From Candidatus Moranbacteria bacterium GW2011_GWE2_35_2- (GTDB taxonomy: Bacteria > Patescibacteriota > Minisyncoccia > Moranbacterales > UBA9337), in the NCBI GenBank assembly GCA_000990585.1, contig LBQD01000002.1, positions 184,016 through 248,015 of the forward strand: a stretch of DNA of 64,000 bases, read 5' to 3'. The notes beneath the pieces are model-generated. The model did not search any database. It was given only the letters and a program-made list of their open reading frames with translations, and was not told the DNA's origin. A program made the translations under genes and the position numbers. Positions within the stretch are counted from its first letter, which is position 1; each line of letters starts with the position of its first letter. Shown here in pieces: positions 3,518 through 62,773 of the stretch.

Positions 3518-4231
3518 ATGGAATACAAATATACGGGAATAATTTTGGGAAAATATGATGTCGGGGAGACCGACCGGATTTATGTTATTTACACCTTGGA
3601 GCAAGGAAAAATTCGCGCGCTTGCCAAAGGGGTGCGCAAGATGCATGCTAAACTGTCAGGATCACTGGAGAGTTTCAATTTGGTTGATATTTTGATTGCG
3701 CGCAACAGGGGGATGGGAAAGATAAAATCAGCGATTGTGGAGAGAAACTTTTCCGTTATTAAAAACAATTTTGAACTGTTGGAAAAGGTTTTTCAAGTTA
3801 TTGGAATTTTCGGTCGTTTAATGGAAGATGAACAAAAAGACGAAGAAGCGTTTTTTTTGCTTGCGCAATATTTGAAAATGATGAATGAAAAAAACGGAGA
3901 TGATTTTTTGCGTTTTAGGATAATAACGCAGGGATTTTTGCACCAACTTTTTTCTTTATTGGGATATCAATTAGAAATTTCCGGTTGTGCGGTTTGTCGG
4001 GAAAAAATAAAAGCCGGCGGTAATTTTTTTTCAATGAGTTGCGGCGGAGTTGTTTGCCATAAGTGTGGCAATGATGTGGTTGAGAAAATGCGCGTTACGG
4101 ACAATACAATCAAGGCGATGCGTATTTTTTCTTCGAATAATTTGAAGTCCTTATTAAAGTTAAAAATAAAAAAAGAGGAAATAACAGAGTTGGAAAGAGT
4201 ATCCGATTTGTTTTATCGATGGATTGTATAA
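3518..4231 (+). CDS. recO: DNA repair protein RecO
   Basis: N-terminal OB-fold region (GIILGKYDVGETDRIYVIYT), C-terminal CAVC...CHKC zinc motif typical of RecO. Confidence 0.8.
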   Translation: MEYKYTGIILGKYDVGETDRIYVIYTLEQGKIRALAKGVRKMHAKLSGSLESFNLVDILIARNRGMGKIKSAIVERNFSVIKNNFELLEKVFQVIGIFGRLMEDEQKDEEAFFLLAQYLKMMNEKNGDDFLRFRIITQGFLHQLFSLLGYQLEISGCAVCREKIKAGGNFFSMSCGGVVCHKCGNDVVEKMRVTDNTIKAMRIFSSNNLKSLLKLKIKKEEITELERVSDLFYRWIV

Positions 4232-6214: not shown

Positions 6215-6233
6215 TATCGTTTTATTTCAAAAT

Positions 6234-7397
6234 ATGGAAATTTTTTCCGAAAAAAGAGTAAGAGTGAAAAAAATAAAAACGAAAAGCGGAGAATTGCAAA
6301 CTCCGTTTTTTATGCCTGACGCTACACGAGGATTTATCAAATCTATGAGCGGAAAAGATTTGAAAGATGCAGGGGTTGGTCCGATGGTAGTCAATACATA
6401 TCATTTGTATTTGCAACCCGGTATGGAATTGATTAAGAAATCCGTCAGTCCTTGTCAAAATTTTGACGGACAAGGAAATATTCATAAATTTATGAATTGG
6501 GACAAGCCCTTGCTTTCCGATAGTGGAGGATATCAAGTTTTTTCTTTGATACACAAGAATCCGCAAATGGGAAAAATTACCGATGATGGCGTGGAATTTC
6601 GTTCGCCTTTGGATGGTTCAAAACACTATATTACTCCGGAAAAAGCGATTCAAATTCAGTTTGATTTGGGAGTGGATATGATGGTGTGCCTGGATGATCC
6701 GCCTCCAAACAGTCATACGAAAGAAAAAATTGAAGCGGCCGTTGATCGGACTTTGGCTTGGGCGAAAAGGTGTATGATAGAGTATAAAAAACAAATTAAA
6801 GAAAGGAAAATTGAAAAAGAAAATAAACCTTTGATTTTTTGCGTTATTCAAGGCGGTGAATATTTGGATTTGAGGAAAAAATGCGTTGAGGGATTGATTG
6901 AAATCGGGTTTTCCAAAGAAGGCGGACCGGCTATGCGATGGGATGGATATGGATTTGGTGCGCGGCATGTTGACAGCGAGGGCAATTTTTTGGAGAAAGT
7001 TTTGGAATATACTGCCAAGTTGATTCCGGAAGATTCTTTGCGTTTTGCTTTGGGAATCGGAACACCGGAGGATATTGTCCGTTCGGTGCAAATGGGATGG
7101 GATATGTTTGATTGCGTAATTCCGACGCGAGAGGCAAGACATGGAAAAATATTTTTATGGAAAGACGATAATTTGGAAGGGGAGTTTTATAAAACTGTGA
7201 ATATTACTAATTCGAAATTTAAGGATGATTTTAGCGCGATAGATGAAAATTGTGATTGTGAACTTTGTCTAAATTATTCACGGGCATATTTGCATCATAT
7301 TTTCAAAATGAAAGATCCTTTGGCGGCACGTATTGCTTCGATTCACAATTTGAAATTCTATACGAATTTGATGAAAAAAATCCGCGGGGAGATGTAG
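6234..7397 (+). CDS. tgt: queuine tRNA-ribosyltransferase
   Basis: GGYQVFSL, DCVIPTR, CDCELC...H zinc site and YLHHIFKMKD motif. Confidence 0.9.
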   Translation: MEIFSEKRVRVKKIKTKSGELQTPFFMPDATRGFIKSMSGKDLKDAGVGPMVVNTYHLYLQPGMELIKKSVSPCQNFDGQGNIHKFMNWDKPLLSDSGGYQVFSLIHKNPQMGKITDDGVEFRSPLDGSKHYITPEKAIQIQFDLGVDMMVCLDDPPPNSHTKEKIEAAVDRTLAWAKRCMIEYKKQIKERKIEKENKPLIFCVIQGGEYLDLRKKCVEGLIEIGFSKEGGPAMRWDGYGFGARHVDSEGNFLEKVLEYTAKLIPEDSLRFALGIGTPEDIVRSVQMGWDMFDCVIPTREARHGKIFLWKDDNLEGEFYKTVNITNSKFKDDFSAIDENCDCELCLNYSRAYLHHIFKMKDPLAARIASIHNLKFYTNLMKKIRGEM

Positions 7398-7747
7398 GCT
7401 TTTTTTGTAGAATTATTGTAGGTTTGAATTTAAAAAATCGAATGTTCTTTTTGAATAAAAAATTATCATAGAAGGTTAAAATAGGGAAAAAACTGAATTT
7501 CTCATAGCCAACCTCATGAAAAAAAGAAAAAGTTGGTAGTAGATAAAAATAACCGATTTTGTAAAAAAATCAAATTTAATGTTGAAAATGAAAGAATGTT
7601 ATGACTCATATCATCAAAATTTGCGTTCGTATTTTTATTTGATCCAAAGACAAGTTCTTAGATGATTATTAAAAAAAATGTCACAGGCTGATTTTCTTAT
7701 TATATTCGAGTCTTTTTTTATTTCATTTTTAAGGATATAATGAAAAT

Positions 7748-9025
7748 ATGAAAAAAATAATTCCACAAAAATTGAAAAATTATTATCATCTACTTTACGC
7801 CGTGGTGGCTAATTTTTGGTACGGATTTCCGTCAAAAAAAATAAAGGTAATTGGCGTAACGGGAACTAATGGAAAAACAACAACCGTGCAAATGATAACC
7901 AAGATTTTGGAAGAAGCTGGATTTGATGTGGCAATGGCTTCAACGATCAATTTCAAATTAAACGGTAAAGAAAAAGTTAATAAAACAAAATTCACAACCC
8001 TCTCGGCATTTGCGGTACAAAAATTTATTATGGATGCGGTTTTGGGTGAACATGATTTTGTGGTCTTGGAAACTTCATCGCATTCGCTAGATCAATACAG
8101 AGTGTGGGGAGTGGAATATGACACAGCAGTGATTACCAATGTGACGCGTGAGCATTTGGATTATCACAAGACAATGGAACAGTATCGAAAAGCCAAAAAA
8201 ACATTATTTAAAAAAGCGGAAAATATTGTGGTTAATTTGGATATGGAGAAACCGGAATATTATTTGAGTGCGGATGTCGAGAAAAAATATGGATATAGTA
8301 TTGAGAATCAAGAATCAAGAATCAAGAATCAGGATTTTTATAAAATGATAAAAGCAGAGAATATAAAACTAGATATCAATAAATCTGAATTCATAATTCA
8401 TAATTCTCAATTCTTATTAAATTTGCCGGGTAAGTTCAATATTGAAAATGCACTGGCGGCAACTTGCGTCGGAATGATTTATGATATTAAAAATGATGTT
8501 ATCGCGCGAGCTTTGGAAAAAATCAATGGAATTCCAGGAAGAATGGAAAGTGTTTCAAATGATAGAGGTTTAAATATTATAATTGACTACGCCGTGACTC
8601 CGGATTCATTGGAAAAATTGTATAGACTAATCAGAGAGTTTCGAAATACTGAAGACGGAAAAATCATTGCGGTATTTGGTTCTTGCGGAGAGCGTGATCG
8701 CGGCAAGCGTCCGATAATGGGAGAAATTGTTTCGCGTACTGCCGACTATGTCATTGTGACTAATGAAGATCCGTATGGAGAAGATCCGCAAAGAATTATT
8801 GATGAGGTGGCAAGCGGGGTGAAAAACAAAAAAGAGAATGAAAACTTTTGGAAAATAACGGATCGCCGCAGGGCAATCAAAAAAGCATTGCAAATTGCAA
8901 GGCCGGGGGATTTTGTGATTGTGACCGGCAAGGGGGCGGAAGAAACAATGGCAGTCGGCGCCACCGAAAGAATTTCTTGGAGCGATAAGAAAATTATCCG
9001 AGAAATATTGCAAGAATCAATGTAA
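7748..9025 (+). CDS. Mur ligase family protein, MurE-like, lacking the usual N-terminal UDP-binding domain
   Basis: P-loop VIGVTGTNGKTTT only ~35 aa from N-terminus; C-terminal GSCGERDRGKRP...VTNEDPYGEDP resembles MurE DNPR region. Confidence 0.65.
   Translation: MKKIIPQKLKNYYHLLYAVVANFWYGFPSKKIKVIGVTGTNGKTTTVQMITKILEEAGFDVAMASTINFKLNGKEKVNKTKFTTLSAFAVQKFIMDAVLGEHDFVVLETSSHSLDQYRVWGVEYDTAVITNVTREHLDYHKTMEQYRKAKKTLFKKAENIVVNLDMEKPEYYLSADVEKKYGYSIENQESRIKNQDFYKMIKAENIKLDINKSEFIIHNSQFLLNLPGKFNIENALAATCVGMIYDIKNDVIARALEKINGIPGRMESVSNDRGLNIIIDYAVTPDSLEKLYRLIREFRNTEDGKIIAVFGSCGERDRGKRPIMGEIVSRTADYVIVTNEDPYGEDPQRIIDEVASGVKNKKENENFWKITDRRRAIKKALQIARPGDFVIVTGKGAEETMAVGATERISWSDKKIIREILQESM
8303..8331 (+). 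repeat. heptanucleotide tandem array (AGAATCA)x4 inside Mur ligase gene
   Basis: gagaatcaagaatcaagaatcaagaatcagg, in frame (ENQESRIKNQD). Confidence 0.8.
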
Positions 9026-9446
9026 GAACAAAACCGAAAATCGCTCCGGCGATCGCTTCTTCCGGACGATGCCCCATTCTTTCTTTGAGGCGGGTATATT
9101 CTTTTTCATCAACACCGATTTTATCAGTGAGCATATTAATATAGCGGCTGTGTTCTCCCATATAGACGCGAAGTCTTGTGGCGTCGTCAATAATCAAAAT
9201 CGCCAAAACAAAAGCAATGGCGAATTCTCCTGAGTCGATTCCGGAGAAATATCCAACGGAAGTTACCAAGGAAATCATTAAAGCGCTATGCACGCTGGGC
9301 ATATGTCCATATGTCATTGCGTGGTCAAGCGTATATTTGAAATTATTTCCGTGTTTGACGTAGAATATGATAAATTTCAAGATTCTAGCGAAAGCCAAAA
9401 CGATCAAAGGAATGATAAACATTGCATAATTTGAAAAAATATCCAT
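8994..9446 (-). CDS. divergent PAP2 (YuiD-like) family membrane protein
   Basis: HMPSVHSA motif and multi-TM topology; ATG at 9446 (track start 9464 is TTG); 3' end overlaps Mur ligase 3' end by 32 bp. Confidence 0.55.
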   Translation of the reverse strand: MDIFSNYAMFIIPLIVLAFARILKFIIFYVKHGNNFKYTLDHAMTYGHMPSVHSALMISLVTSVGYFSGIDSGEFAIAFVLAILIIDDATRLRVYMGEHSRYINMLTDKIGVDEKEYTRLKERMGHRPEEAIAGAIFGFVLTLILAIFLG

Positions 9447-52536: not shown

Positions 52537-53295
52537 TTATTTTACATTAATATATTTGCAAGAAAAATCCTTATCTCCTCCGGTAAGTCCAGCGGTAATG
52601 TGTCCTGGCGTAAAATTTCTTCCCTTGGAAGAGTGATATAAATAATATTTTTCTAATTGCTGTGCTGTTAGGTTTTTTTGTTTCAATATTTGAATAGCTT
52701 TTAATTCACCCGTTGCTCCTGGACCAAATTTTTCATCCAAACAATTATAAATAGCAACCAGTTGATTTTCAAAATTTTCATTGGCTGGCGAGGGGCTAGC
52801 TATAATTTTATCTACGATACCTGAATAAACTTTCAAAACATCTTGGGTGTCACTTTCGGTTTTTATATCTTTCTTGACTTTTGTTTGGCATAAACTCATA
52901 TCCTTATCATTGCAAATAGAGCCTCCGGTCACAAATCCCGCACCATGAAAATTAGAACAATTAAAACCACATTCATCTTCTTTACAACTCGGCTCTGCTC
53001 TTAATTCGAGGCAAAGTTTTTGATTTTCCTCTTTAATTTGTTTGGAATCTATAGAATTTGCCCAACCAAAAATTATCCACCCCACTAAACATCCAAGCAA
53101 AAATATATTTTTTTTGAAAGCAAGTAACCCAAAAACTATAGCTAACAAATAGCCGAAAATAGCGAATTGAAAATAATGATTATAAAACAGTGCTGGAATG
53201 GTAGAGGCTGCACCAAGTAAAAAAATAAAACCAAGCAATGCGACTGCTACTAAGTTTATAATTTTTAAAAATCCGATGATTTTGTCTTTATTCAT
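52537..53295 (-). CDS. membrane protein with Cys-rich extracytoplasmic domain, hypothetical
   Basis: 4 N-terminal TM helices then Cys-rich ~150 aa domain. Confidence 0.35.
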   Translation of the reverse strand: MNKDKIIGFLKIINLVAVALLGFIFLLGAASTIPALFYNHYFQFAIFGYLLAIVFGLLAFKKNIFLLGCLVGWIIFGWANSIDSKQIKEENQKLCLELRAEPSCKEDECGFNCSNFHGAGFVTGGSICNDKDMSLCQTKVKKDIKTESDTQDVLKVYSGIVDKIIASPSPANENFENQLVAIYNCLDEKFGPGATGELKAIQILKQKNLTAQQLEKYYLYHSSKGRNFTPGHITAGLTGGDKDFSCKYINVK

Positions 53296-53365
53296 GTATT
53301 TAAAATAAAAAAATAAAATTTGCCTCGATTAAATGCCCGATAGGGTCGAAAAGAATTTTTTAATA

Positions 53366-53540
53366 TTTCGCCTAACGTATCGGAGTATGCGAAGTTCGCT
53401 TTTTGGGTTTATTGATTATTATTTGAATTATCTGGTTACTATTTTAGATGATTTTTGCTTAAATTACCACCAAACAGAGAAAAGCGAATTTGGGAAAAAT
53501 TCGAGCCGAGCCTTTTTCCGCATACTCGGTGTTAGGCGAG
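53366..53540 (+). repeat. attC-like structured repeat R1
   Basis: left CGCCTAACGTATCGGAGTATGCGAAGTTCGC, right GCGAATTTGGG...CCGCATACTCGGTGTTAGGCGAG; inner stems pair within the copy. Confidence 0.7.
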
Positions 53541-53618
53541 GGTGAGCGGAACGGAGTGGAGCGAAAGCGCAGCGTCCCAGTAGCGTTTTCTTTTAAATTA
53601 TTTTTTGCGGTCGCGGGC

Positions 53619-53647
53619 TTGACAGATTATTCCTTATCTGCTATACT
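53619..53647 (+). promoter_or_regulatory. consensus-like sigma-70 promoter P1 inside cassette W
   Basis: TTGACA -17- TGcTATACT; near-identical module to P2 at 54648. Confidence 0.55.
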
Positions 53648-53742
53648 AAACGGTCAATAGTTGAGAAATCGTTTTTTAACTCAAAAGAGTGGTTTCTTGC
53701 TATTGCGAGGACTTACTCTATTTGGAGGAGGGAGGAGAAAAA

Positions 53743-53892
53743 ATGAAGAAAACAATAAAGATTTTGGCCGCAATAAATGCTGTATTAACTGTAGTAAATG
53801 CCGCAGTTAATATAAAGCCACTTACTGTGGCAGCTGCGGTGTTTTTCATTTTAATCACAATCATCATTTTTTCGATACCATCGAAGAAGTGA
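53743..53892 (+). CDS. small hydrophobic peptide (49 aa)
   Basis: GGAGGAGGGAGGAG RBS, ATG 53743, single TM peptide MKKTIKILAAINAVLTVVNAAV...; strong terminator follows. Confidence 0.35.
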   Translation: MKKTIKILAAINAVLTVVNAAVNIKPLTVAAAVFFILITIIIFSIPSKK

Positions 53893-53911
53893 TGATCCAC
53901 AGTTCCAATTC

Positions 53912-53945
53912 AAGGCGTTAGCTGTACAGCTAACGCCTTTTTTTC
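53912..53945 (+). terminator. rho-independent terminator
   Basis: AGGCGTTAGCTG-ta-CAGCTAACGCCT 12-bp perfect stem followed by TTTTTTT. Confidence 0.7.
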
Positions 53946-53972
53946 ATGAGCAAAAAATAATTTGAAAGAAAA

Positions 53973-54060
53973 TGTCGCCTAACGTTTACGCATCATCTGA
54001 AGTGCGAAGCATTTGAGTGAAGCGTAGCGAAACCGGATATGGGCTGTTGGGCGATGTAAG
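53973..54060 (+). repeat. attC-like repeat R2 (short, degenerate)
   Basis: left TGTCGCCTAACGTTTACGCATCATCTGAAG, right CTGTTGGGCGATGTAAGG. Confidence 0.55.
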
Positions 54061-54070
54061 GTTTGGCAAT

Positions 54071-54334
54071 TTATTTTTGTTTATTAAAATTTTTAACTGG
54101 AAAAAATAGTATCAAGCAGAAAGCTACCAAGCTATCAATATACGGAATTAACGGACAAATATTTTTTGAATAATAAATTTTTTTTTCACAATCTAAATCG
54201 CCGACTACACATGCGAGTTTCAATGTGCAATTACTTCCATATAAAAATTTATCGAAAATAACAAAAACCAGGACGGCGATAATTAAAGCGATGATAAATT
54301 TAATTTTAGTTGGTTTAAAAATTTTAATAAACAT
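54071..54334 (-). CDS. small membrane protein, hypothetical (cassette gene)
   Basis: 87 aa, two TM helices, Cys-containing loop; sits between R2 and R3. Confidence 0.3.
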   Translation of the reverse strand: MFIKIFKPTKIKFIIALIIAVLVFVIFDKFLYGSNCTLKLACVVGDLDCEKKIYYSKNICPLIPYIDSLVAFCLILFFPVKNFNKQK

Positions 54335-54373
54335 ATTTTTTTTTACTTATTAAAAATAAATTGCCAGACCTTA

Positions 54374-54594
54374 TTTCGCCTAACGTTTAAGAATATCTGA
54401 AGTCCTGCACTTTGGTTTTTATACACAAAACCTTGATATTCCTACTTTATTTGTTAATCTCATTATACTCTAATTTACAGCAAAACGGAAAAGTGCAGGA
54501 TTTGGGAGAGAAAAATTTGCCCTCCTTTTAGTTTTAACTGTGGCAAATTTTTTGAACCAGATATTCTTTGTTATCGGATGTAGCAAAAAACAAA
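54374..54594 (+). repeat. attC-like structured repeat R3
   Basis: TTTCGCCTAACGTTTAAGAATATCTGAAGTCCTGCAC...GTGCAGGATTTGGGAGAGAAAAATTTGCCCTCC...GGCAAATTTTTTGAACCAGATATTCTTTGTTATCGGATGTAGC. Confidence 0.75.
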
Positions 54595-54647
54595 CATTCC
54601 TTATTGTATTTATTTTTTTTCAAGCCCTTTTAAAATTTTTTGTGGTC

Positions 54648-54676
54648 TTGACAGGCTGGCTTTTTTCTGCTATACT
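54648..54676 (+). promoter_or_regulatory. consensus-like sigma-70 promoter P2 inside cassette X
   Basis: TTGACA -17- TGcTATACT, then AAAAGGAGG RBS before ATG 54736. Confidence 0.55.
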
Positions 54677-54735
54677 AACTTGATACTAATTTTGGTGTCT
54701 GTACATTACAAAACTCGAGAAAAAGGAGGTTTACA

Positions 54736-55296
54736 ATGGAACTCAAGAGTATATTGTCGGTAATTTCTGGCGTGTTGTTCGTTGCGGGATTCGTTCCCTA
54801 CATTATCGCAATACTGCGTGGTGAAACGAAGCCTGCAAAGGCCTCGTGGATAATCTGGGCAAGCCTTGACTATATTGTCTTGGCTGGCATGATTGCTGAA
54901 AAAACAGTCAACGGACAAATCCTTGGGGCTGTAATCGGAGCAACAATCGTCATCGGTCTGGCCATGAAATACGGAGCTTCGGGTTGGACAAGAACGGATA
55001 AATTTTGTCTCATCGGTGCAATGCTTGGCATTTCATTATGGATGATTTTTAAAAATCCAACCTTCGGCATCATGACAAGCTGCATTGTCGCATTTATCGG
55101 TTCTTTTCCCACGTTTATATCTGCGTGGAAAGACCCCAGTAAAGAAAACAGGCTTGCGTGGACTATTTTCTGGATTTCCTGCGTTTGCGCAATGATAGCC
55201 ATTCCGCGCATGACCTTTGCTGATGCAGCACAGCCCACAACCTTTTTTCTAATTGAAAGCGTCATGATGTATATTTTGTACTTTCGCGCTCGCTAA
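54736..55296 (+). CDS. polytopic membrane protein, hypothetical, GC-rich (foreign-looking)
   Basis: 186 aa, ~6 TM; strong promoter and RBS; GC ~48%. Confidence 0.5.
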   Translation: MELKSILSVISGVLFVAGFVPYIIAILRGETKPAKASWIIWASLDYIVLAGMIAEKTVNGQILGAVIGATIVIGLAMKYGASGWTRTDKFCLIGAMLGISLWMIFKNPTFGIMTSCIVAFIGSFPTFISAWKDPSKENRLAWTIFWISCVCAMIAIPRMTFADAAQPTTFFLIESVMMYILYFRAR

Positions 55297-55411
55297 ACTC
55301 GCAAGCGACATTATTGTAAGGTCATCAGTTGGATACTGGTGGCCTTTTTCTTTTTCTAAAATTTTAAAAGGGCTTGAAAAAAAATATTAATAAAAGGTTT
55401 GTTTTTTGCTA

Positions 55412-55440
55412 TTTCCGATAACGTAAGTGATATCTGAAGT
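55412..55440 (+). repeat. attC-like repeat R4, left arm (interrupted by cassette Y)
   Basis: TTTCCGATAACGTAAGTGATATCTGAAGT pairs with right arm at 55877. Confidence 0.55.
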
Positions 55441-55495
55441 TTTTATTTTCTTTCCTTATTATTTTTAAAAAAGGGAAAATAAAAATTTGGGTGGA

Positions 55496-55874
55496 GTGAA
55501 AGAAAAATATTATTTAATATCGATTAGAACAGCATCAACTTCTTCATCAGAAACAAACGCTCTGGTAACTTGCTCACATTGAATTTCATCAAAAATTTTC
55601 ACCACCACATATGTTCCAATGGTTTTTCCTTCGCCTAAAGTATATTTGGTTATGACACATCTGCCATAAGCATTCCAGTTTTCATCTCGCAGATCCATTG
55701 GAACTTTGATTTGATAAAGCCTGTGCCCGTTTTTACTAAAATTATACTTTTTGCCAATCTCGAGCGGATTAGGAATATCCTTTTTGTCCATTCTGAGACA
55801 GGCTTGCAATTCAAATGGGTTGCCCATAAATTTTTTGATATTAACGGAGATATTAAATAATATTTTTCTTTCAC
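55496..55874 (+). mobile_element. TIR-bounded mini-cassette Y carrying a 105-aa gene, inserted inside repeat R4
   Basis: 26-bp TIRs GTGAAAGAAAAATATTATTTAATATC / GAGATATTAAATAATATTTTTCTTTCAC; left TIR overlaps stop codon of the gene. Confidence 0.55.
55510..55827 (-). CDS. hypothetical protein (cassette gene)
   Basis: 105 aa soluble protein, no motif recognised. Confidence 0.4.
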   Translation of the reverse strand: MGNPFELQACLRMDKKDIPNPLEIGKKYNFSKNGHRLYQIKVPMDLRDENWNAYGRCVITKYTLGEGKTIGTYVVVKIFDEIQCEQVTRAFVSDEEVDAVLIDIK

Positions 55875-55876
55875 GT

Positions 55877-55907
55877 AACCAGATATTACTTGTTATCGGA
55901 TGTGGCG
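55877..55907 (+). repeat. attC-like repeat R4, right arm
   Basis: AACCAGATATTACTTGTTATCGGATGTGGCG. Confidence 0.55.
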
Positions 55908-55922
55908 AATACTTGGAGCTAT

Positions 55923-56042
55923 TTCCGATAACGTTTCAGTATATCTGATGTTTGCCAAAATTCCTTTAAAAATCAATAAGTTTTTGGCAAATATGGGTCG
56001 AGCGAGGGCACGAGCGAGCCAGATATACTGTGTTGTGCGAGG
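55923..56042 (+). repeat. attC-like repeat R4b (short complete copy)
   Basis: TTTCCGATAACGTTTCAGTATATCTGATG...TTTGCCAAAA/TTTTGGCAAA...AGCCAGATATACTGTGTTGTGCGAGG. Confidence 0.65.
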
Positions 56043-56175
56043 GTTATTTTCTGGAGTGATAACGGAAGAAAATCAAGTGCAACGACCCCGAAGCGTATTT
56101 TTCAATATTTTTTCATTCCTTATTATTTTGTTGAAGAATTTTATCATTATTTGGAATTTTTATTTTTTCGTTTTT

Positions 56176-56212
56176 CTTTTTCCAAGAGGGGTTAGGGGTG
56201 AATTGGAAAAAG
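56176..56212. repeat. hairpin with G-rich loop GAGGGGTTAGGGGTGAA (half copy of the ileS GC-rich element), at 3' end of IIG gene
   Basis: 10-bp stem CTTTTTCCAA/TTGGAAAAAG around loop. Confidence 0.5.
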
Positions 56213-56221
56213 AAAAACACC

Positions 56222-58642
56222 TTATTTTAAATATTTCTTTAACTCATCAAAACCATAACTATTTTCTACAATATTTTTTATATACTCCAAATCTAACTCC
56301 TTGTCGTTTTTAAAAGGCATTGGAATATTCATTTTTTTAAGTTTTGTTAAATTTAATTTTCTGTAATAATTATATCTCCATTGATGATTTTTTATCATTA
56401 CTGAAATATAAAATAATAAATATGGATTATATTCATTTTTTAATGTTAGAACTGCATTATCTCCGCTAGTTATAAAATCATCAAATTGAAAAAATGTTTC
56501 TCCAACACTTCCGTTTAATGCCACAGTTAGACATTTGCCTTTAAAATTTGGATCTTCATCGTAATAACCGGATACTCCATTATTTAGCGATGAAGTAGTA
56601 ACATATGGAATATTACCTATTTCTAAAGAATTTTGAGGCAAGGCTGTTTTTTTGTTTATAATACATAAACCATTTTCTTGCTCTTCTTTTATATAAATTA
56701 CTGGTATAAATTTTATTTTAGGCTGTTTCCCTATATGTTTACTTCTCCATTTTTTAGTTTTTATTAAATATGTTAATGATTCTTTTATAGCATTGTCTAA
56801 TTGTTCTTCGACTTCTTTAATATCAGGTATTTTATTATCTATATAAACCTCGGGGGTAAGTTCTATGTTTACATCATTATTATCAAGCTTACAAATTTTC
56901 TTAAATTCTGGAGCGTCTTCAAATTTTAGATTTTGATTAACTAAAAATGCTTTCAATTCTTCTTTTATTTCTTTTATTTGATTTCTTTCTCTTTCTTCAT
57001 CAAAAATTCTTTTTCCTTTCTTTTTTCTATATCCGTCCGTAACACCTCTTGCAAAATATACATTTTGACTATTAAAATTATGAGGAACACCCTTTTTTAT
57101 AAATACTCCTATTGTTCCAACACTAACAGGATAAAATAGATCTTCTGGCAAAGTAACAACCGATAATAAAGTATTATTTTCTAGTAAATCTTTTCTCCAA
57201 GATTTTCCACCTCCACCTTCAACCATTACAGAGATTGGAACAATGGCAAAAAGAATACCACCGTCTTGCATTTGAGATAATGCATGATCTATAAAATGTC
57301 TTTCTTTTTCATCTCCTTTTTTAAGAGCAAAAGGAGGGTTCATTAATACTTTAGTGATAACTGGATTTTTAGTTAATTCATTACCTATTCTTTTTACAAA
57401 TTCACCTGTTTGATTTCCTTTTTTATTAGTTAATTCTATATTTTTTTGAAAACAATTTCCCTCACTCATATTATTTCTTCCATCTCCCCTAAAAATCATA
57501 TTTACAAGTGCAAGTGCTACGACTTCATCGTCCTGTTCAATTCCAAAAAGATTATAATTTTTAAATTTTTCTATTTGTTTATCGCTTGAATTTTTTTTGA
57601 TATGATCAAAAGAAGAAACTAAAAAACCACCTGTACCACAAGTCGGATCAAGAACATAATCATTGTGATTTACATCTAAAACTTCAACTGCAAATTCTGT
57701 TATATGTCTAGGAGTTAAAACGATACCTATCTCTTTTGCACCATTTCCATATTTCAAAAATTTTTCATAAAATTCTCCTAAAATATCTTTACCAGAAGCC
57801 ATTGCATTCTTAATATCTAAAGCCTCTAATTCTTTAATTGTTTCCTTGATTGCGTCCCTATATTTTATGTGATTCTCTCTGCTTGGTGGTAATTCTAATT
57901 TTAGAAAATTAAAAAAACTTTCTTTTTCTACTTCTCTTAGTTTTTTATTGATTAATGAATTAACACTTTCAACTAATGTTGTTGTATCATTTTCTTTTAG
58001 ATTGATAAAAGAATTATCTGCCAAAGAAAGTACAAGTCCTGCAATGAATCTAGCTCTTTTATTTTTATTTATCCCTGCATTATGTAAAATTTCATTTATT
58101 TCTAATGCTGAATCTATATATTTTTCTTCTGGCAAATCTGGAAACTCCGACCATTCTGGCTTATCGTGTTCTAAAATATATTGAGCTTGTTTTTTTGAAA
58201 GTAAGATATTTTTTATCTTTCCTTTTTCCAAAAGCACATTTTCCCATTTCCCATTTTTTAAATATTGATTTTTGACTATATAACCATCTGTATCATTTCC
58301 AGCTACTCCAGAAATTAAAACACATTTAATTTTTTTACTTTTGTTAATCTTTTTCGCATATTGATTTTTTGCCTCATCAAGAGCTTGTTCTATCATATCT
58401 CTATCTCTCTTGCTTTCAATTGCCCAAAATTCTTCACTATTAAGTTTTACCACAGCTTCTGGCATATCTCTATCCAGAAGATTTTTTAGTTCTTTATGGT
58501 ACAAAACTTCATTTTGCTTATAAACTTCACCATCAGAAACCCTAGCAGGATTTTTTACAATCCAACCTAATTTATCAAGCTCTTCCTTGATATAAGTATA
58601 AGCATCAACCTCACTATTTTTTGGTTTAGATGAATGAGTCAT
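56222..58642 (-). CDS. Type IIG-like restriction-modification fusion protein (N6-adenine MTase + TRD, putative N-terminal nuclease)
   Basis: MTase motif I DPTCGTGGFL, motif IV NPPF, HsdM-like GEFYEKFL...TPRHI; C-terminal HsdS-type TRD; N-terminal PE...IESK possible PD-ExK; very AT-rich codon usage. Confidence 0.55.
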   Translation of the reverse strand: MTHSSKPKNSEVDAYTYIKEELDKLGWIVKNPARVSDGEVYKQNEVLYHKELKNLLDRDMPEAVVKLNSEEFWAIESKRDRDMIEQALDEAKNQYAKKINKSKKIKCVLISGVAGNDTDGYIVKNQYLKNGKWENVLLEKGKIKNILLSKKQAQYILEHDKPEWSEFPDLPEEKYIDSALEINEILHNAGINKNKRARFIAGLVLSLADNSFINLKENDTTTLVESVNSLINKKLREVEKESFFNFLKLELPPSRENHIKYRDAIKETIKELEALDIKNAMASGKDILGEFYEKFLKYGNGAKEIGIVLTPRHITEFAVEVLDVNHNDYVLDPTCGTGGFLVSSFDHIKKNSSDKQIEKFKNYNLFGIEQDDEVVALALVNMIFRGDGRNNMSEGNCFQKNIELTNKKGNQTGEFVKRIGNELTKNPVITKVLMNPPFALKKGDEKERHFIDHALSQMQDGGILFAIVPISVMVEGGGGKSWRKDLLENNTLLSVVTLPEDLFYPVSVGTIGVFIKKGVPHNFNSQNVYFARGVTDGYRKKKGKRIFDEERERNQIKEIKEELKAFLVNQNLKFEDAPEFKKICKLDNNDVNIELTPEVYIDNKIPDIKEVEEQLDNAIKESLTYLIKTKKWRSKHIGKQPKIKFIPVIYIKEEQENGLCIINKKTALPQNSLEIGNIPYVTTSSLNNGVSGYYDEDPNFKGKCLTVALNGSVGETFFQFDDFITSGDNAVLTLKNEYNPYLLFYISVMIKNHQWRYNYYRKLNLTKLKKMNIPMPFKNDKELDLEYIKNIVENSYGFDELKKYLK

Positions 58643-58864
58643 AAGTTTAGATTATTATAAATATAAATTTATTATAGCATGTAGCAACATATTAATAAAA
58701 AAAATTAAATTTTCAATTATGGTTTTATTAAATAATCATTTTTTGCGGAGGAACGGAGCAAAAAATATCCGCTTATCCCCCTCATAAAAATAAAAAAATA
58801 AAAATTCCATTCCTTTTTAAATTCTTCAACAAAATTTTCATTTGAGAAAAAATATTGAAAAATA

Positions 58865-59064
58865 TGTCGCACAACGTATCGGCATCATCTGAAGTTGCGC
58901 CCATATTTATTGGCTAAAACTTCAACTTTCTATCTACTTTAATTATATCACTAAATTTTGTCCTATCACAGCGCAATTTGGGAGAGAAAATTTTTCAAAC
59001 CTTGGCGTTAAAAGATATAAAGGTGAAAAATTTCCGAACCAGATATGCCGTGTTAGCTGATGTA
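58865..59064 (+). repeat. attC-like structured repeat R5
   Basis: TGTCGCACAACGTATCGGCATCATCTGAAGTTGCGCCC...CAGCGCAATTTGGGAGAGAAAA...GAACCAGATATGCCGTGTTAGCTGATGTA. Confidence 0.75.
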
Positions 59065-59128
59065 TTTTTTTTGTCTTCTATTTTATTGGTACAAATTTTG
59101 TTTATTCTAAAAGAAAATTTGATTTTTG

Positions 59129-59177
59129 TTTTGGATTTTGGGCAGAGGGGTCAGGGGTGAATGCCCAAAATCCAAAA
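59129..59177. repeat. hairpin with G-rich loop GAGGGGTCAGGGGTGAA, at 3' end of 59185..59664
   Basis: 16-bp perfect stem TTTTGGATTTTGGGCA/TGCCCAAAATCCAAAA. Confidence 0.55.
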
Positions 59178-59184
59178 CTCCTTT

Positions 59185-59664
59185 TTATTTTTCCTCTAGA
59201 TCTTTACCAGATATCCATGCTTCATACAATATTTCATCACGAGTTTTATAATGGCTTTCTTCAATTTTAACATCTTCCATTCTTTTCATATAAGCTGCGT
59301 ACAAAGGAGACTCTTTTTTCATATATTCAATGTATGCATCATCAATTCCGTTGTAAGTTGGGTCTGCCATCATTTTTTGTACACGATATTCATCCTTTCC
59401 CTTTTCTAGCTTTTTCCACTCTTGGGCTAATTCTTCATCACTACGATTATCACCAGCCAACCTTGCTCTGTTGATGTAAATATCCGTTCTTTCTTTCTCT
59501 AACTTCTCCATCTCTACAATATCCTGCTCCTCAGTTTGCTCATAATCTCTTGTGCCTGGATTAAAATCTCTTTCCATAGCTTCTAACCCTTCTATGTGGG
59601 CAGTTTCAGCATCTTTACTGCCTGGCTCTGGAGTAAAACTCCCAAAATTTTCTTTGTTTCCCAT
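59185..59664 (-). CDS. acidic hypothetical protein (cassette gene)
   Basis: 159 aa, E/D/K-rich, no motif recognised. Confidence 0.35.
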   Translation of the reverse strand: MGNKENFGSFTPEPGSKDAETAHIEGLEAMERDFNPGTRDYEQTEEQDIVEMEKLEKERTDIYINRARLAGDNRSDEELAQEWKKLEKGKDEYRVQKMMADPTYNGIDDAYIEYMKKESPLYAAYMKRMEDVKIEESHYKTRDEILYEAWISGKDLEEK

Positions 59665-59679
59665 ATTTTTTTACTTAAA

Positions 59680-60285
59680 TTAATTAATATTTATTACTTT
59701 TATTATTTCATCAAAACTAGAAACTATTTTGAACGGTTTTCCTTTTTCGAGTCTGTCTTTTTTGTGAAAGCCAAAATCGACTGCAATTGTTTTGACTCCG
59801 ACTTTATTCCCTTCTATAATATCTCCCAGAGTATCAGTCACAAAAACACAATCTTCAGCTTTGAATTTGTATTTTTCAAATAAGTATTTGAATTTTTCAA
59901 CTTTAGATTGATGTGTTTCAGCTCCCAATATTTCCTTAAAAATGTGAACGAATTTATTGTTTTGAAAATAAATATTCAACGCCTCCTCTTGATTGGATGA
60001 AATAATAAACAAAAGATATCTCAGTGATAGTTTTTCTAAATTACTTTTAACACTCGCGTCTATTTTAAGATGCTCGAACGCTTTATTTTGCAACTTATAA
60101 AATTGCTCGCTATCCGCCTTTTCCTTTTCCTCATCAACCACTACTTTTTCAAAGATATTTCCATTGAAAAAATCCCTATGTTGTTCTCGAGTTAGATTCC
60201 CGCCAGAAATCTTAAGGTTTATTTGATAGGCCATTTCATATGTATCATGAATTACACCATCAAAATCAAAAATAATTGCTTTCAT
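59680..60285 (-). CDS. HAD superfamily hydrolase (subfamily IA-like)
   Basis: motif I IIFDFDGVI, motif III K, motif IV VFVTDTLGDIIEG. Confidence 0.7.
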   Translation of the reverse strand: MKAIIFDFDGVIHDTYEMAYQINLKISGGNLTREQHRDFFNGNIFEKVVVDEEKEKADSEQFYKLQNKAFEHLKIDASVKSNLEKLSLRYLLFIISSNQEEALNIYFQNNKFVHIFKEILGAETHQSKVEKFKYLFEKYKFKAEDCVFVTDTLGDIIEGNKVGVKTIAVDFGFHKKDRLEKGKPFKIVSSFDEIIKVININ

Positions 60286-60429
60286 AGGTTATTTGCTATA
60301 AATAGTTTTTTTATGCCTCTTTGTAGGCAGAAAAAACACCTTTTACCCCTCTATAAATAAATTAAAAATCAAATTTTCTTCGTGGTTCAACGCACAAATC
60401 TCAAAATTATCACCAAAGACAAAAAAATA

Positions 60430-60547
60430 TTTCAGCTAACGTTTGCGTGTATCTGAAGTTGCGCCCGTTATTTTTTTGGCTAAACTTCAATATTCACTTG
60501 TCTGAATTATATCACCGAACCCCAATTATTAGAAGGCGCAATTTGGG
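60430..60547 (+). repeat. attC-like repeat R6, left part (interrupted by cassette Z)
   Basis: TTTCAGCTAACGTTTGCGTGTATCTGAAGTTGCGCCC...GGCGCAATTTGGG. Confidence 0.7.
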
Positions 60548-60610
60548 CGAAGCCAGAGAATGAATTTATAATTTTTTTCCTTATAAAAAAGGCTCTTTTT
60601 GATTTTTTCG

Positions 60611-60639
60611 TTGACAGAACGGTTTTTTTCGTTTAAGGT
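60611..60639 (+). promoter_or_regulatory. putative sigma-70 promoter P3 inside cassette Z
   Basis: TTGACA -17- TAAGGT, then AAGGAGG RBS before ATG 60684. Confidence 0.45.
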
Positions 60640-60683
60640 AACCTCAGTACAAAATCCATAAACCCAGAAAAGGAGGAAATAAA

Positions 60684-61160
60684 ATGAAGCTCTTTAATAT
60701 CTTCAAGAAAAAAATCGTGGCTGGTTGCGGACACGAAACGCTGAAAAAGGACAAGGTGACGGCTTTCGGTGCAAGTTGCGAAACCAAAATCCCGATCGCT
60801 GACGGCAAAACCGACTATTGTCATCGTTGTCTCGAGAAAATGGCAATTAGGTGCGCCTGGTGCGGTGAAGTCATTTTCATCGGCGACCCGATTACTCTCT
60901 ATTCTCCGAAAGACAAAGACCGTAAGATGCCTGATTATGCTGTACCTCACAACAAAGAACACAATTCCTACGTGGGATGCTTCCGTTGGAACTGTGCCGA
61001 GACAGGCGCGGATAGAGCTGGATTTTGGTATCCGCCAGGCAAGGTTTACCGTGTTCCGACGCCGATTGAGATGTGCATGAAGAACATGCAAAACGGCGGT
61101 GATGGCGTAATTTGTGTCGGCGATCTCAGTGATCGCAAGGAGGCAGTGAGAGGCTTGTAA
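60684..61160 (+). CDS. Cys-rich hypothetical protein, GC-rich (foreign-looking)
   Basis: 158 aa with >=12 Cys (CxH..C, CHRC, CAWC, CFRWNC...); ~50% GC; overlapping ORFs on other frames are shadows. Confidence 0.45.
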   Translation: MKLFNIFKKKIVAGCGHETLKKDKVTAFGASCETKIPIADGKTDYCHRCLEKMAIRCAWCGEVIFIGDPITLYSPKDKDRKMPDYAVPHNKEHNSYVGCFRWNCAETGADRAGFWYPPGKVYRVPTPIEMCMKNMQNGGDGVICVGDLSDRKEAVRGL

Positions 61161-61215
61161 AAAATCAAAAAGAGCCTTTCAAAAATAAGAAAAAATTATA
61201 AATTCATTCTCTGGC

Positions 61216-61247
61216 GTAGCCAGATACACGCTGTTAGGCGATGTAAA
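61216..61247 (+). repeat. attC-like repeat R6, right arm
   Basis: GTAGCCAGATACACGCTGTTAGGCGATGTAAA. Confidence 0.65.
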
Positions 61248-61333
61248 TTTTAGCTAAACGCTATATTACATCGCCTTTTTTATTGGTAGATGTAAAAGTA
61301 AAAACAATAAATATTTTTATTAAGCTAAAATTT

Positions 61334-61531
61334 ATTTCGCCTAACGTATCGGCATCATCTGAAGTTGCGCCCGTAGTTATTAGCTAAAACTTCAAATATC
61401 TACCTGTTTTTGATTATATCACTAAATTCTAACAAACGTCAGCGCAATTTGGGAGAGAAAAATTTGCCCTCCTTTTAGTTTTAACTGAGGCAAATTTTTT
61501 GAACCAGATATGCCGTGTTGTGCGATGTAAA
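61334..61531 (+). repeat. attC-like structured repeat R7
   Basis: TTTCGCCTAACGTATCGGCATCATCTGAAGTTGCGCCC...CAGCGCAATTTGGGAGAGAAAAATTTGCCCTCC...GGCAAATTTTTTGAACCAGATATGCCGTGTTGTGCGATGTAAA. Confidence 0.8.
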
Positions 61532-61536
61532 ATTTT

Positions 61537-61794
61537 TTATCGTTTGCTATGGGTTAACTTTAATATTAACAAAGACAGTGTGAGAGACGCTTCAATTGTA
61601 GTAAAAATCATTATGGGACGACTATGCAATCCAATGCCATATATTATAAATAGAATCAGCCCGATTAAAAGCAAGGAATTCCACAACAAAGAAATATCTT
61701 CTGTTGATTTAGTTGTCCATGATTTAATCACCTGAGGCACAAGGGCTGATGCGATGATTGCCGAACCAGCAAAACCTACGATTTCAATATCCAT
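61537..61794 (-). CDS. SemiSWEET/PQ-loop family small transporter (putative)
   Basis: 85 aa, 3 TM, ALVPQVIKSWTTKSTEDISLLW PQ-loop motif. Confidence 0.5.
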   Translation of the reverse strand: MDIEIVGFAGSAIIASALVPQVIKSWTTKSTEDISLLWNSLLLIGLILFIIYGIGLHSRPIMIFTTIEASLTLSLLILKLTHSKR

Positions 61795-61915
61795 AATGAT
61801 TTTTACGTTAGTTAATAAAAAATTTTATTTCGCACAACTGGTTTTATCCGTACCTGCCAATAATTTGGCTTGGATTAAGGTTTGTGGTATGATTTTGATG
61901 TAATCATACTGTCTT

Positions 61916-62773
61916 ATGAATGAATATTATCATAAAAGAAAAAATGCGACAATGACAGAAATGGACTCATTAAACAGATTGGAACGAGAATTGAAAATTC
62001 GTGGATTTAGTTTAAAAACCGTCAAGTCTTATTTGATGTATAATAGGCTATTTTTGGAATTTATAAAGAAAAGTCCTAAAGCGATTACAAATGATGACAT
62101 TCGTCAATATTTATTATCTCTGAAAAATAAAAATTGCGCTAATTCCACTTTAAACGTGGCGCTTAATGCTTTGAAGTTTTATTATCGAGGAATACTTAAA
62201 AGAAAATTCTTTTTTGATATAAAAAGCGCTAAAAAAACTAACTATTTGCCGACGGTTCTTAGTAAGGAAGAAGTTAAGAGAATGTTAGAGATGACCACAA
62301 ATCCAAAACATAATTTTTTCATAGCCTTGATGTATTCGTCCGGTTTGCGTGTTAGCGAGGCAGTCAAAATAAGGATGTGTGATTTTGATTTAGATAGAAA
62401 AATAATCACAGTGCGGCAAGGAAAGGGTGCAAAAGATCGCTGCACGCTTCTGTCGGAAAAACTTATACCGACATTAAAAAAGCAACTAACACTTAAAAAA
62501 TCAAATGATTATTTATTTACTGGGGCAGGTGGAAACGGACATCTAACTGTTGAAAGTGCCGAAAAAATAATTAGAAAGGCAGTTGAGTCAGCCAATATCG
62601 TTAAAAAAGTTTCTTGTCACAGTTTGCGACATTCTTTTGCCACTCATCTTCTGGAATCTGGTACGAGTATTCGGTATATTCAAGAACTTTTAGGGCATGC
62701 TAGACTGGAAACAACACAAATTTACACTAAAGTTGCCAATAATAATTTACAAAATATCCAAAGTCCGTTATGA
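61916..62773 (+). CDS. tyrosine site-specific recombinase, XerC/XerD-like
   Basis: GLRVSEAVKIRMCD (Arg I), VRQGKGAKDR, HSLRHSFATHL (His/Arg II), LGHARLETTQIYTKV (catalytic Tyr); no IntI-specific insertion. Confidence 0.8.
   Translation: MNEYYHKRKNATMTEMDSLNRLERELKIRGFSLKTVKSYLMYNRLFLEFIKKSPKAITNDDIRQYLLSLKNKNCANSTLNVALNALKFYYRGILKRKFFFDIKSAKKTNYLPTVLSKEEVKRMLEMTTNPKHNFFIALMYSSGLRVSEAVKIRMCDFDLDRKIITVRQGKGAKDRCTLLSEKLIPTLKKQLTLKKSNDYLFTGAGGNGHLTVESAEKIIRKAVESANIVKKVSCHSLRHSFATHLLESGTSIRYIQELLGHARLETTQIYTKVANNNLQNIQSPL

Follow-up and report, generated by a model that had tools for sequence, protein, structure and literature searches.

A probable integron-like cassette system with a XerA/IntI-like recombinase in a Candidatus Moranbacteria genome

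Introduction

The defining component of an integron is an integrase with an extra domain that is regarded as necessary for the recombination of folded attC sites, and integrons are reported to be rare or absent in several major phyla. The closest described form is the sedentary chromosomal integron, e.g. the Vibrio cholerae superintegron with its Vibrio cholerae repeat (VCR) attC sites, in which a divergent integrase gene and an adjacent insertion site accompany a same-orientation array of mostly single-gene cassettes. Each cassette ends in an imperfect palindrome with ...AAC and GTT... cores, and opens with bases that can pair with the inner core of its own site; repeats are homogeneous within a lineage, some cassettes are empty, others lie on the opposite strand with their own promoters, and cassette content varies between strains. 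These traits recur at positions 53366-62773 of a 64,000-nucleotide stretch of contig LBQD01000002.1, here called the window, where eight structured repeats with genes in between (53366-61531) stand beside a gene for a tyrosine recombinase. The host is Candidatus Moranbacteria bacterium GW2011_GWE2_35_2-, a tiny-genome groundwater bacterium of the Candidate Phyla Radiation (CPR), as had been suspected from the DNA itself; that genome encodes a protein with 100% identity to the recombinase. The locus is probably a sedentary chromosomal integron-like system, complete in its organization and recurrent in related genomes. It differs from sedentary integrons in that its integrase lacks the IntI insertion and falls under the TIGR02249 cut-off, its sites are three-way junctions with conserved junction nucleotides and not simple stems with a variable terminal loop, pairing runs 15-90 bp outside the cores, genes can occupy the stems of the sites, many cassettes seem to bear promoters, and the host belongs to the Patescibacteria. 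It is organized like an integron yet lacks the IntI domain by which integrons are defined, and is probably a variant of the integron.

Systems that depend on Xer recombinases also offer comparisons. CTX-phi and the integrative mobile elements exploiting Xer (IMEX) use XerCD at dif, i.e. a Xer-type recombinase without the IntI insertion that acts on a folded single-strand hairpin mimicking a duplex site; the exchange of a single strand is resolved by replication, and elements stack in tandem at the site, as is proposed here. Those elements, however, are phages or islands and do not form arrays in which single-gene cassettes have a dedicated conserved hairpin, whereas in the window the site adjoins the recombinase gene and there is no terminus signature. 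The archaeal XerA/dif system shares with this locus the NCBIfam family NF040815, a similar size and domain order of the protein, and a single recombinase working on a near-palindromic site; the known role of XerA is chromosome resolution, with duplex dif as its site, and no cassette arrays for XerA were found in the open-access literature that was searched. The pdif modules of Acinetobacter plasmids are likewise gene modules bounded by Xer-type sites and reshuffled between replicons, but pdif sites are 28-bp XerC/XerD duplex sites in alternating orientation, whereas the elements described here are hairpins of 80-220 nt in one orientation at one chromosomal locus. Searches of open-access papers and bioRxiv found no report of integrons in Patescibacteria, CPR, Parcubacteria or Desulfitobacterium, or of Xer-like cassette arrays.

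Repeat array, neighbour pairing and terminal site

A preliminary reading made from the letters of the window (the sequence-only reading) had placed eight repeat copies in this region, and all eight were found at the claimed coordinates when the sequence was checked. It had overlooked a ninth (half) site at 61830-61856, on the array side of the recombinase. The sites and the recombinase gene are listed below; related loci in other genomes carry L numbers throughout.

53366-53540, + strand: R1, distal-most attC-like hairpin site; left core TCGCCTAAC at 53368-53376, right core GTTAGGCGA at 53531-53539
53973-54060, + strand: R2, minimal attC-like site without stem 2
54374-54594, + strand: R3, attC-like three-way-junction site of a subtype also present in L001, L008, L013 and L092
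55412-55907, + strand: R4, split site with a DUF2584 gene (55510-55827, minus strand) inside its stem 2
55923-56042, + strand: R4b, attC-like site whose cores lie 23 nt from the R4 cores (41 nt core to core), leaving an empty cassette
58865-59064, + strand: R5, attC-like site at whose left core the homology between the window and L008 begins
60430-61247, + strand: R6, split site with a promoter-bearing gene for a 158-aa Cys-rich protein (60684-61160, + strand) inside stem 2
61334-61531, + strand: R7, attC-like site closest to the recombinase; right core GTTGTGCGA at 61517-61525
61826-61856, + strand: attI-like terminal site; variable half TCGCACAAC (61830-61838) is complementary to the right core of R7, conserved half TGGTTTTATCCGTACCTG at 61839-61856
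61865-62773, + strand: promoter (61865-61893) and gene (61916-62773) of a 285-aa tyrosine recombinase, XerA/IntI-like

Read on the + strand, each element of 80-220 nt is formed by a left core TCNNNNAAC, a spacer starting with GT, an 11-nt L'' box, AAG, a variable stem-loop 1, (A)TTTGGG, a variable stem-loop 2, an L' box starting with CCAGAT, 0-2 nt and a right core GTTNNNNGA. In the cores AAC and GTT are invariant, and the left cores are not all of the RYYY type (GCACAAC is an example). The right core had been said to be followed by GATGTA; this applies to five of the eight copies, while R4 has GATGTG and both R1 and R4b have GAGGGT. Set against attC sites, the elements have R and L stems, a bulge of 2-4 nt and in some copies one bulged base; a conserved three-way junction forms their centre, and they can be as long as 220 nt. 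Pattern and nhmmer scans of the 64-kb window found no copy outside 53366-61856, and there is none in the 10-kb downstream flanks of related loci either. Copies in the related loci lie in upstream arrays, so that the many dispersed copies, independent of one locus, by which miniature inverted-repeat transposable elements (MITEs) and repetitive extragenic palindromic (REP) elements are recognized are absent from the window and the related loci.

The boundaries of the cassettes carry the signature of an integron: the right end of each repeat pairs with the left end of the next repeat, or with the terminal site, and not with its own left end. Cores were taken by hidden Markov model (HMM) profile coordinates from 10 non-redundant loci, and 25 of 35 junctions proved perfectly complementary at the four variable core positions; when partners were permuted 100,000 times the mean was 3.3 and the maximum 12. 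The two ends of a single repeat match in only six of 36 cases. Four further perfect junctions and one further G·T wobble come from L338 and L003. Within the window the 9-mer pairs given by the sequence-only reading are correct, with six of seven junctions perfect, and so is its count of two copies in eight with matching ends of their own (R1 and R4); the single mismatch, between R2 and R3, is a G·T wobble on the + strand. The rule reaches over distances of up to 6.9 kb, and its excess over the permutation expectation supports the integron-like cassette logic that had been proposed.

The array has a definite head. The sequence-only reading had predicted a partner for the right end of R7, starting with TCGCACAAC, somewhere else in the genome; the partner exists, but in the window itself, at 61830-61838, 78 nt upstream of the start codon of the recombinase gene. 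Next to it an AACT-NN-TTTTAT block is invariant in ten related genomes and lies at the same distance from the recombinase gene, whereas the four or five bases before AAC vary by genome (GTGC in the window, GTAC in L001, GGGC in L003, ATCT in L004, CTGC in L090) and match the right core of the nearest repeat wherever that repeat was identified. No lone right core is found beyond R1 at the distal end. The half site at the recombinase, together with the missing lone core at the other end, indicates that the array starts at the recombinase. The earlier placement of the recombinase at the distal end, with a cluster of attC sites lacking an integrase (CALIN) as one option, is therefore abandoned. 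The layout is that of a canonical integron: a divergent recombinase gene, an adjacent insertion-type site at the head of the array, and cassettes read on the minus strand. The terminal site would serve as the insertion point. Within the first part of the recombinase gene, at its 5' end, a weak promoter-like match (CTGTCA-18-TATGAT, 9/12, 61958-61929, minus strand) is aimed into the array, at a position presumably equivalent to that of Pc in class 1 integrons; shuffled sequence gives such matches at a similar frequency.

The recombinase

The protein carries the domains PF13495 and PF00589 (134.6 bits). It scores 234.3 bits against NF040815, recomb_XerA_Arch ('site-specific tyrosine recombinase/integron integrase'), above the cut-off of 220, which places it in a Xer family; the score is about equal with TIGR02249, the integron integrase model (229.8 bits, split over two stretches), whose cut-off is 265, and PRK15417 gives 153.6 bits against a cut-off of 435. 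The best solved homologue is the integron integrase VchIntIA (2a3v), at 168 bits, followed by archaeal XerA at 147 and 144 bits and by E. coli XerD at 83. In the alignment to VchIntIA, residues 186-240 of IntI stand opposite only 13 residues of the query (196-208), from which it follows that the IntI-specific insertion, the additional domain around patch III that marks the IntI clade, is absent. The spacing from GKG to HxLRH agrees, with 59 aa in the window protein and 57-61 aa in every motif-matching homologue, so that the recombinase is Xer-like without the insertion, as first supposed. The catalytic residues R145, K170, H235, R238, H261 and Y270 are intact, as in integron integrases, and invariant in 13 homologues.

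Folding of the sites as single strands

Alignment of the arms of the inner stems, in 34 distinct copies drawn from 12 loci, shows 96% pairing in the L stem and changes on both sides in seven of its 11 pairs, values reached in none of 500 shuffles; slid registers drop to 25-49% paired. Even the 'conserved' inner part of the stem covaries (TATCTG/CAGATA, TATCCG/CGGATA, TATGCG/CGCATA, TATGAG/CTCATA, TATCAG/CTGATA, TATACG/CGTATA). The covariation first noted among the window copies is confirmed on this larger set, and minimum free energy (MFE) folds recover the further inner stems that had been noted with it. At the variable core positions of a repeat just 67.6% of cells are paired within the repeat itself, as cassette logic predicts. 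The predicted fold has an R stem of 9-10 bp, often prolonged outward by 15-90 bp, a bulge of 2-4 nt on the 5' arm, an L stem of 11 bp and a three-way junction in which AAG and TTTGGG are conserved and unpaired.

The fold favours one strand. With DNA parameters, the fold of the + strand is the more stable of the two strands' folds in 26 of 29 repeats, by a mean difference of -3.0 kcal/mol (p = 5e-6, Wilcoxon), and the non-Watson-Crick pairs, counted on the + strand, are much more often G·T than A·C (13 against 4 in the L stem, 6 against 0 at the core junctions), an excess that points to a folded single strand. If the left arm of the next repeat is swapped in, as in an excised circle, the hairpin is stabilized by 11.6 kcal/mol on average. 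Covariation, strand-biased fold energy and the G·T excess all support folded single-strand sites; the repeats do fold as the sequence-only reading expected of the bottom strand, but the folding strand is the + strand of the window and not its complement. The strand-biased energies and the G·T excess would also be indirect signs that the recombinase acts on the folded strand.

Rfam holds no family for these repeats: a gathering-threshold scan of the window and an E-value scan of 53200-62000 returned two tRNAs and two sub-threshold chance matches only. A hammerhead or other ribozyme was considered for the three-way junction and rejected, since on inspection the order of the conserved strands does not fit and Rfam is silent.

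Related loci in Patescibacteria and variation between strains

The arrangement is recurrent. The match between locus L006 and the window extends over 12,085 bases. At all loci of close homologues (61-82% identity) for which upstream sequence is available the terminal site is conserved, and repeats of the family lie upstream in nearly all of them (L001, L003, L004, L090, L092, L338; weak traces in L094). More distant homologues, at 43-52% identity, have the same arrangement (L013, L027, L073, L246, L249). All sites have one orientation, in arrays that are always upstream of the same recombinase family, and this orientation is independent of the strand of the flanking genes. Gene order rests on metagenome assemblies; the same order is seen in many independent contigs.

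Content differs between conserved flanks. L003, L092 and L338 have PriA and def in common on their flanks (and fmt where the locus reaches it), and the genes of their arrays are entirely different. L008, a strain variant, has a recombinase identical to that of the window; its four proximal cassettes are also the same, and it diverges distal to R5, where the similarity rises stepwise from unalignable sequence to ~83% inside R5, ~88% in the next 50 nt and then ~100%. In L001 one cassette is duplicated. Variation at the level of cassettes, as expected by the sequence-only reading, is thus present in these genomes; the L008 breakpoint was set aside as proof of the side of the crossover, its boundary being graded and not sharp.

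L274, a 232-kb metagenome contig, still has its array, terminal site, promoter and ATG (6950-7290, minus strand), but the recombinase frame stops after four codons; it is a decayed integrase-less array that has lost its recombinase gene. Several contigs (L007, L089, L091, L095, L336, L337) end 20-460 nt upstream of the recombinase gene, because repeats break assemblies, and arrays of this kind are probably under-represented in metagenome-assembled genomes (MAGs). A DNA-pattern scan of viral and metagenome contigs with 14 specified bases gave mostly single chance matches, and real sites in about 10 metagenome loci and one viral locus. The latter, L214 (IMG/VR, classed as viral), has two minimal sites of ~60 nt, 5790-5865 and 7340-7405, formed by the R stem, bulge and L stem only; no recombinase homologue is found on its 8.5-kb stretch.

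Crossover position and proposed mechanism

The duplication in L001 comprises 593 bp, is 98.7% identical, and both its ends fall at AAC|GT of left cores, so that the duplicated unit consists of the inner part of a repeat, its right core, a gene and the next left core. From this unit and from the half site at the recombinase, which is a lone left-type one, the exchange is placed on the + strand at TCNNNNAA|C, and not at the right-hand G/TT, where the sequence-only reading had expected the presence or absence of cassettes to vary. With a tyrosine recombinase bound to the R arm, the cut would be expected at this position, on the 5' side of the central region; the + strand of the window is then the equivalent of the 'bottom strand' of integrons. 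The exact cleavage position would be the one that these ends suggest.

The following course of events can be proposed. The actor would be the catalytically intact XerA/IntI-like recombinase (61916-62773) without the IntI insertion, and its double-stranded target the conserved upstream site TCGCACAA|C TGGTT TTATCCGT. The distal end of each cassette would be an element of 80-220 nt that folds as single-stranded DNA on the + strand, with an R stem built from the cassette's own two ends, TCNNNNAAC / GTTNNNNGA, and the folded R and L stems would mimic the two arms of the double-stranded site. The + strand would be cut after AA in TCNNNNAA|C and one strand exchanged; with the terminal site as partner the outcome would be insertion, and with another repeat it would be excision. 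By analogy with integrons and with XerCD-mediated CTX-phi integration, the product would be resolved by replication.

Relatives without the insertion in other phyla

A protein-guided scan of genome contigs showed that the recombinase family is not confined to Patescibacteria: among the matches listed there are members at 38-54% identity from many phyla, and all of the motif-matching members among them have the spacing of 57-61 aa, i.e. they are without the IntI insertion. At least five insertion-less members lie directly upstream of arrays of canonical-looking attC-like sites of 60-170 nt:

L033: Gemmatimonadaceae, insertion-less recombinase with attC-like array
L037: Desulfitobacterium sp. 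Sab5, insertion-less recombinase with attC-like array
L059: Fusibacter, insertion-less recombinase with attC-like array
L069: Ignavibacteriota, insertion-less recombinase with attC-like array
L015: Nitrospirae, insertion-less recombinase with attC-like array

These arrays obey the neighbour rule, mostly at six of six positions, and their sites have the asymmetry seen in the window, i.e., counted from the recombinase-proximal end, the spacer that follows the first core is short and the one that precedes the second is long. The distant members that were tested score like the window protein on NCBIfam. The recombinases of L033 and L037 have an N-terminal extension of ~110-140 aa.

Many integrase-less arrays are on record, given that IntegronFinder 2.0 found one complete integron only in Firmicutes (PMC9024848) and a study of archaeal integrons counted 6 IntIs for 539 attC sites (PMC9668308). 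The loci described above may belong to one previously unrecognized, phylum-spanning class of integrons whose XerA/IntI-like integrases lack the IntI insertion and which standard detection misses or calls CALINs; Patescibacteria would contribute the three-way-junction form of attC, and Desulfitobacterium, Fusibacter, Gemmatimonadaceae, Ignavibacteriota and Nitrospirae the canonical-looking arrays. That such a class exists, with these members, is about as likely as not. Many arrays labelled integrase-less may then adjoin an integrase that was not recognized. If true, hairpin sites can be recombined without the I2 insertion, and these systems are a missing link between Xer recombinases and integron integrases, a natural intermediate that would allow the descent of integrons from Xer-like recombinases to be tested directly. 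They would also reveal a dedicated device for gene capture in the ultra-small symbiotic CPR bacteria, whose means of genome flexibility are poorly known.

Alternative explanations

Several points weigh against the integron-like reading. No recombination event, circular cassette or excision junction has been observed. The recombinase lacks the insertion that is reported to be necessary for IntI activity (Messier and Roy 2001, as cited in PMC9668308) and may be the cell's housekeeping Xer. Many cassettes appear to own promoters, unlike typical integron cassettes; the gene modules in stem 2 or stem 1 of some sites (R4, R6, L001, L090, L092) are unexplained by the simple model; and the L008 breakpoint is not clean and does not by itself fix the side of the crossover. 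Cleavage at the left core would put the extra nucleotides on the cleaved arm, in which the sites would differ from canonical attC bottom strands.

The alternative that comes nearest is a Xer/dif system with stacked IMEX-like cassettes, in which the recombinase is the cell's sole enzyme for dimer resolution, the terminal site is its dif, and the cassettes are small elements that make use of the enzyme by folding a single strand into an imitation of dif, in the way that CTX-phi uses XerCD. It would alter the ownership of the enzyme and not the reaction, and so overlaps with the integron-like reading; the locus could be described just as well as a Xer-type enzyme at whose site cassettes with hairpins build up, in the manner of CTX-phi at dif. 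The protein does score above the XerA_Arch equivalog cut-off (234 against 220 bits), Patescibacteria very commonly have close homologues of it (70-82% identical), which lie among housekeeping genes, and an imperfect dyad can be drawn in the terminal site, with CGCACAA and TTATCCG as arms and 6 bp in between. In some Xer systems dif adjoins the recombinase gene, as in XerS/difSL. The Xer-related recombinases of candidate phyla have been grouped as a 'Cand' subgroup and presumed to replace Xer, in a study that does not mention cassette arrays (Smyshlyaev et al. 2021, PMC8138268). On the other side, L274 retains its array and terminal site with the recombinase gene deleted, and distant members of the family stand beside attC-like arrays in Desulfitobacterium, Fusibacter and Gemmatimonadaceae. 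The phyla of these bacteria ordinarily encode XerC/XerD, which suggests a dedicated role for the array-linked enzymes. GC skew is positive and gene orientation the same on both sides of the array, i.e. there is no signature of a terminus, but this argument is weak; since skew follows gene strand, it was dropped as an uninformative test. A Xer/dif system is considered a possible but rather unlikely account of the locus.

Recombination might instead involve ordinary duplex sites, as with pdif, the right end of each repeat (CAGATA-N6-GTTNNNNGA) being the site and its hairpin potential being incidental or serving another purpose. The right end and the terminal site are indeed alike in spacing and arm sequences (CGGATAAAACCAGTTGTGCGA against CAGATATGCCGTGTTGTGCGA), and crossovers at one boundary of a duplex site would yield the neighbour rule as well. 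A duplex site, however, does not call for the compensatory changes that keep the left-hand copy complementary to the right-hand one in both the R and L stems, nor for the one-strand G·T excess and the strand asymmetry of fold energy. Moreover, the sequence between the arms varies among repeats, and the classical two-strand exchange by tyrosine recombinases is disfavoured by differing central sequences; this account is improbable. Still less can be said for repeats that have nothing to do with recombination, whether a MITE or foldback family or transcribed structured RNAs acting as signals for processing or termination. The terminal inverted repeats, the three-way junction with its conserved unpaired nucleotides and the G·U-compatible pairs on one strand would suit such elements. 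Against them stand the absence of further copies from the rest of the window and from the 10-kb downstream flanks of related loci, the strictly uniform orientation of arrays that lie without exception upstream of one recombinase family, a neighbour rule that operates across kilobases, the independence of repeat orientation from the strand of flanking genes and the lack of any Rfam match, and this last explanation is considered very improbable.

Cassettes and minor observations

The integron-like system outlined above harbours the following cassettes and cassette genes.

53541-53972, + strand: cassette body between R1 and R2, with a 45-nt GGGT...AGC insert, inverted repeats on both sides, a near-consensus promoter (53619-53647), a gene for a 49-aa hydrophobic peptide (53743-53892) and a terminator (53912-53939)
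54071-54334, minus strand: cassette gene, 87 aa, with no family match
54595-55411, + strand: cassette with terminal inverted repeats of ~70 nt, a promoter (54648-54676), a gene for a 186-aa membrane protein (54736-55296) and a terminator (55318-55346)
56043-58864, minus strand: cassette with terminal inverted repeats of ~75 nt and a gene for an 806-aa restriction-modification protein, a fused N6-methylase and specificity domain (56222-58642)
59065-60429, minus strand: two-gene cassette with a 159-aa protein without assigned role (59185-59664) and a HAD hydrolase (59680-60285)
61537-61794, minus strand: first, recombinase-proximal cassette gene, for an 85-aa SemiSWEET/PQ-loop protein

The last of these was missing from the cassette list of the sequence-only reading, which had correctly described two cassettes as nearly empty (41 and 113 nt core to core). 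Core-to-core alignments in the window show that the terminal inverted repeat of a cassette measures 24 to ~100 nt, complementarity extending well past the 9-mers; next to the core there is a conserved T·T mismatch and a T·G wobble, with GATGTA opposite TATTTC. About 80% of the genes called in the arrays are oriented away from the recombinase, and the opposite-strand genes of the window have their own sigma-70 promoters (11/12, with extended -10) and terminators.

Some variants concern the repeats themselves. In R1 (53540-53585) and R4b (56041-56095) an insert of 45-55 nt, GGGT...AGC, replaces TGTA, after which the inverted repeat of the cassette resumes; the same variant is found in other genomes (L027 at ~5376, L216 at ~3340). 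R2, which lacks stem 2, shows the 'empty' form, GAAGCGTAG. In other copies whole genes, flanked by inverted repeats of 20-60 nt, are nested in stem 2, or in stem 1 in L090 (window 55412-55907 and 60430-61247; L001 8769-9259; L090 6916-7524; L092 8050-8598), and they are bounded by conserved GAG/GAAG and CGTAG/CGTAA. The nested genes may mark a second insertion point or be a clue to cassette formation, and such repeats may bear on the unsolved question of the origin of cassettes.

Other elements are common to several cassettes. The hydrophobic-peptide cassettes (window 53619-53742; L001 7165-7292 and 8445-8572) have a near-consensus promoter and a conserved leader of ~90 nt in common, and their peptides differ; they may be akin to type I toxin modules of the kind that stabilize arrays. 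A conserved hairpin with the loop AGAGGGGTYAGGGGTGAAT, C-rich on the minus-strand RNA, is found directly past the stop codons of minus-strand cassette genes (window 59126-59176 and 56176-56222; L001 ~3900-3950 and ~2362-2410; L013; L027). It is common to unrelated cassettes and genomes and may be a terminator or an RNA element.

The array of L001 has further peculiarities. A promoter-driven non-coding stretch lies inside its split repeat (8860-9215); within it 9027-9115 matches positions 2126-2215 of bacterial large subunit (LSU) rRNA (47.1 bits, E = 4e-13, just under gathering), positions that belong to the L1-stalk region, and 8932-9014 gives a weak tRNA-like match, although ARAGORN finds no tRNA or tmRNA. 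One cassette-like interval of L001 (3831-6932) encodes a class II aminoacyl-tRNA synthetase (tRNA-synt_2b, HGTP anticodon domain) and a sodium:solute symporter, so that housekeeping-type genes occur within the array. In L092 an insertion sequence (IS) element with an rve-family transposase (6029-6976) is inserted in one cassette of the array.

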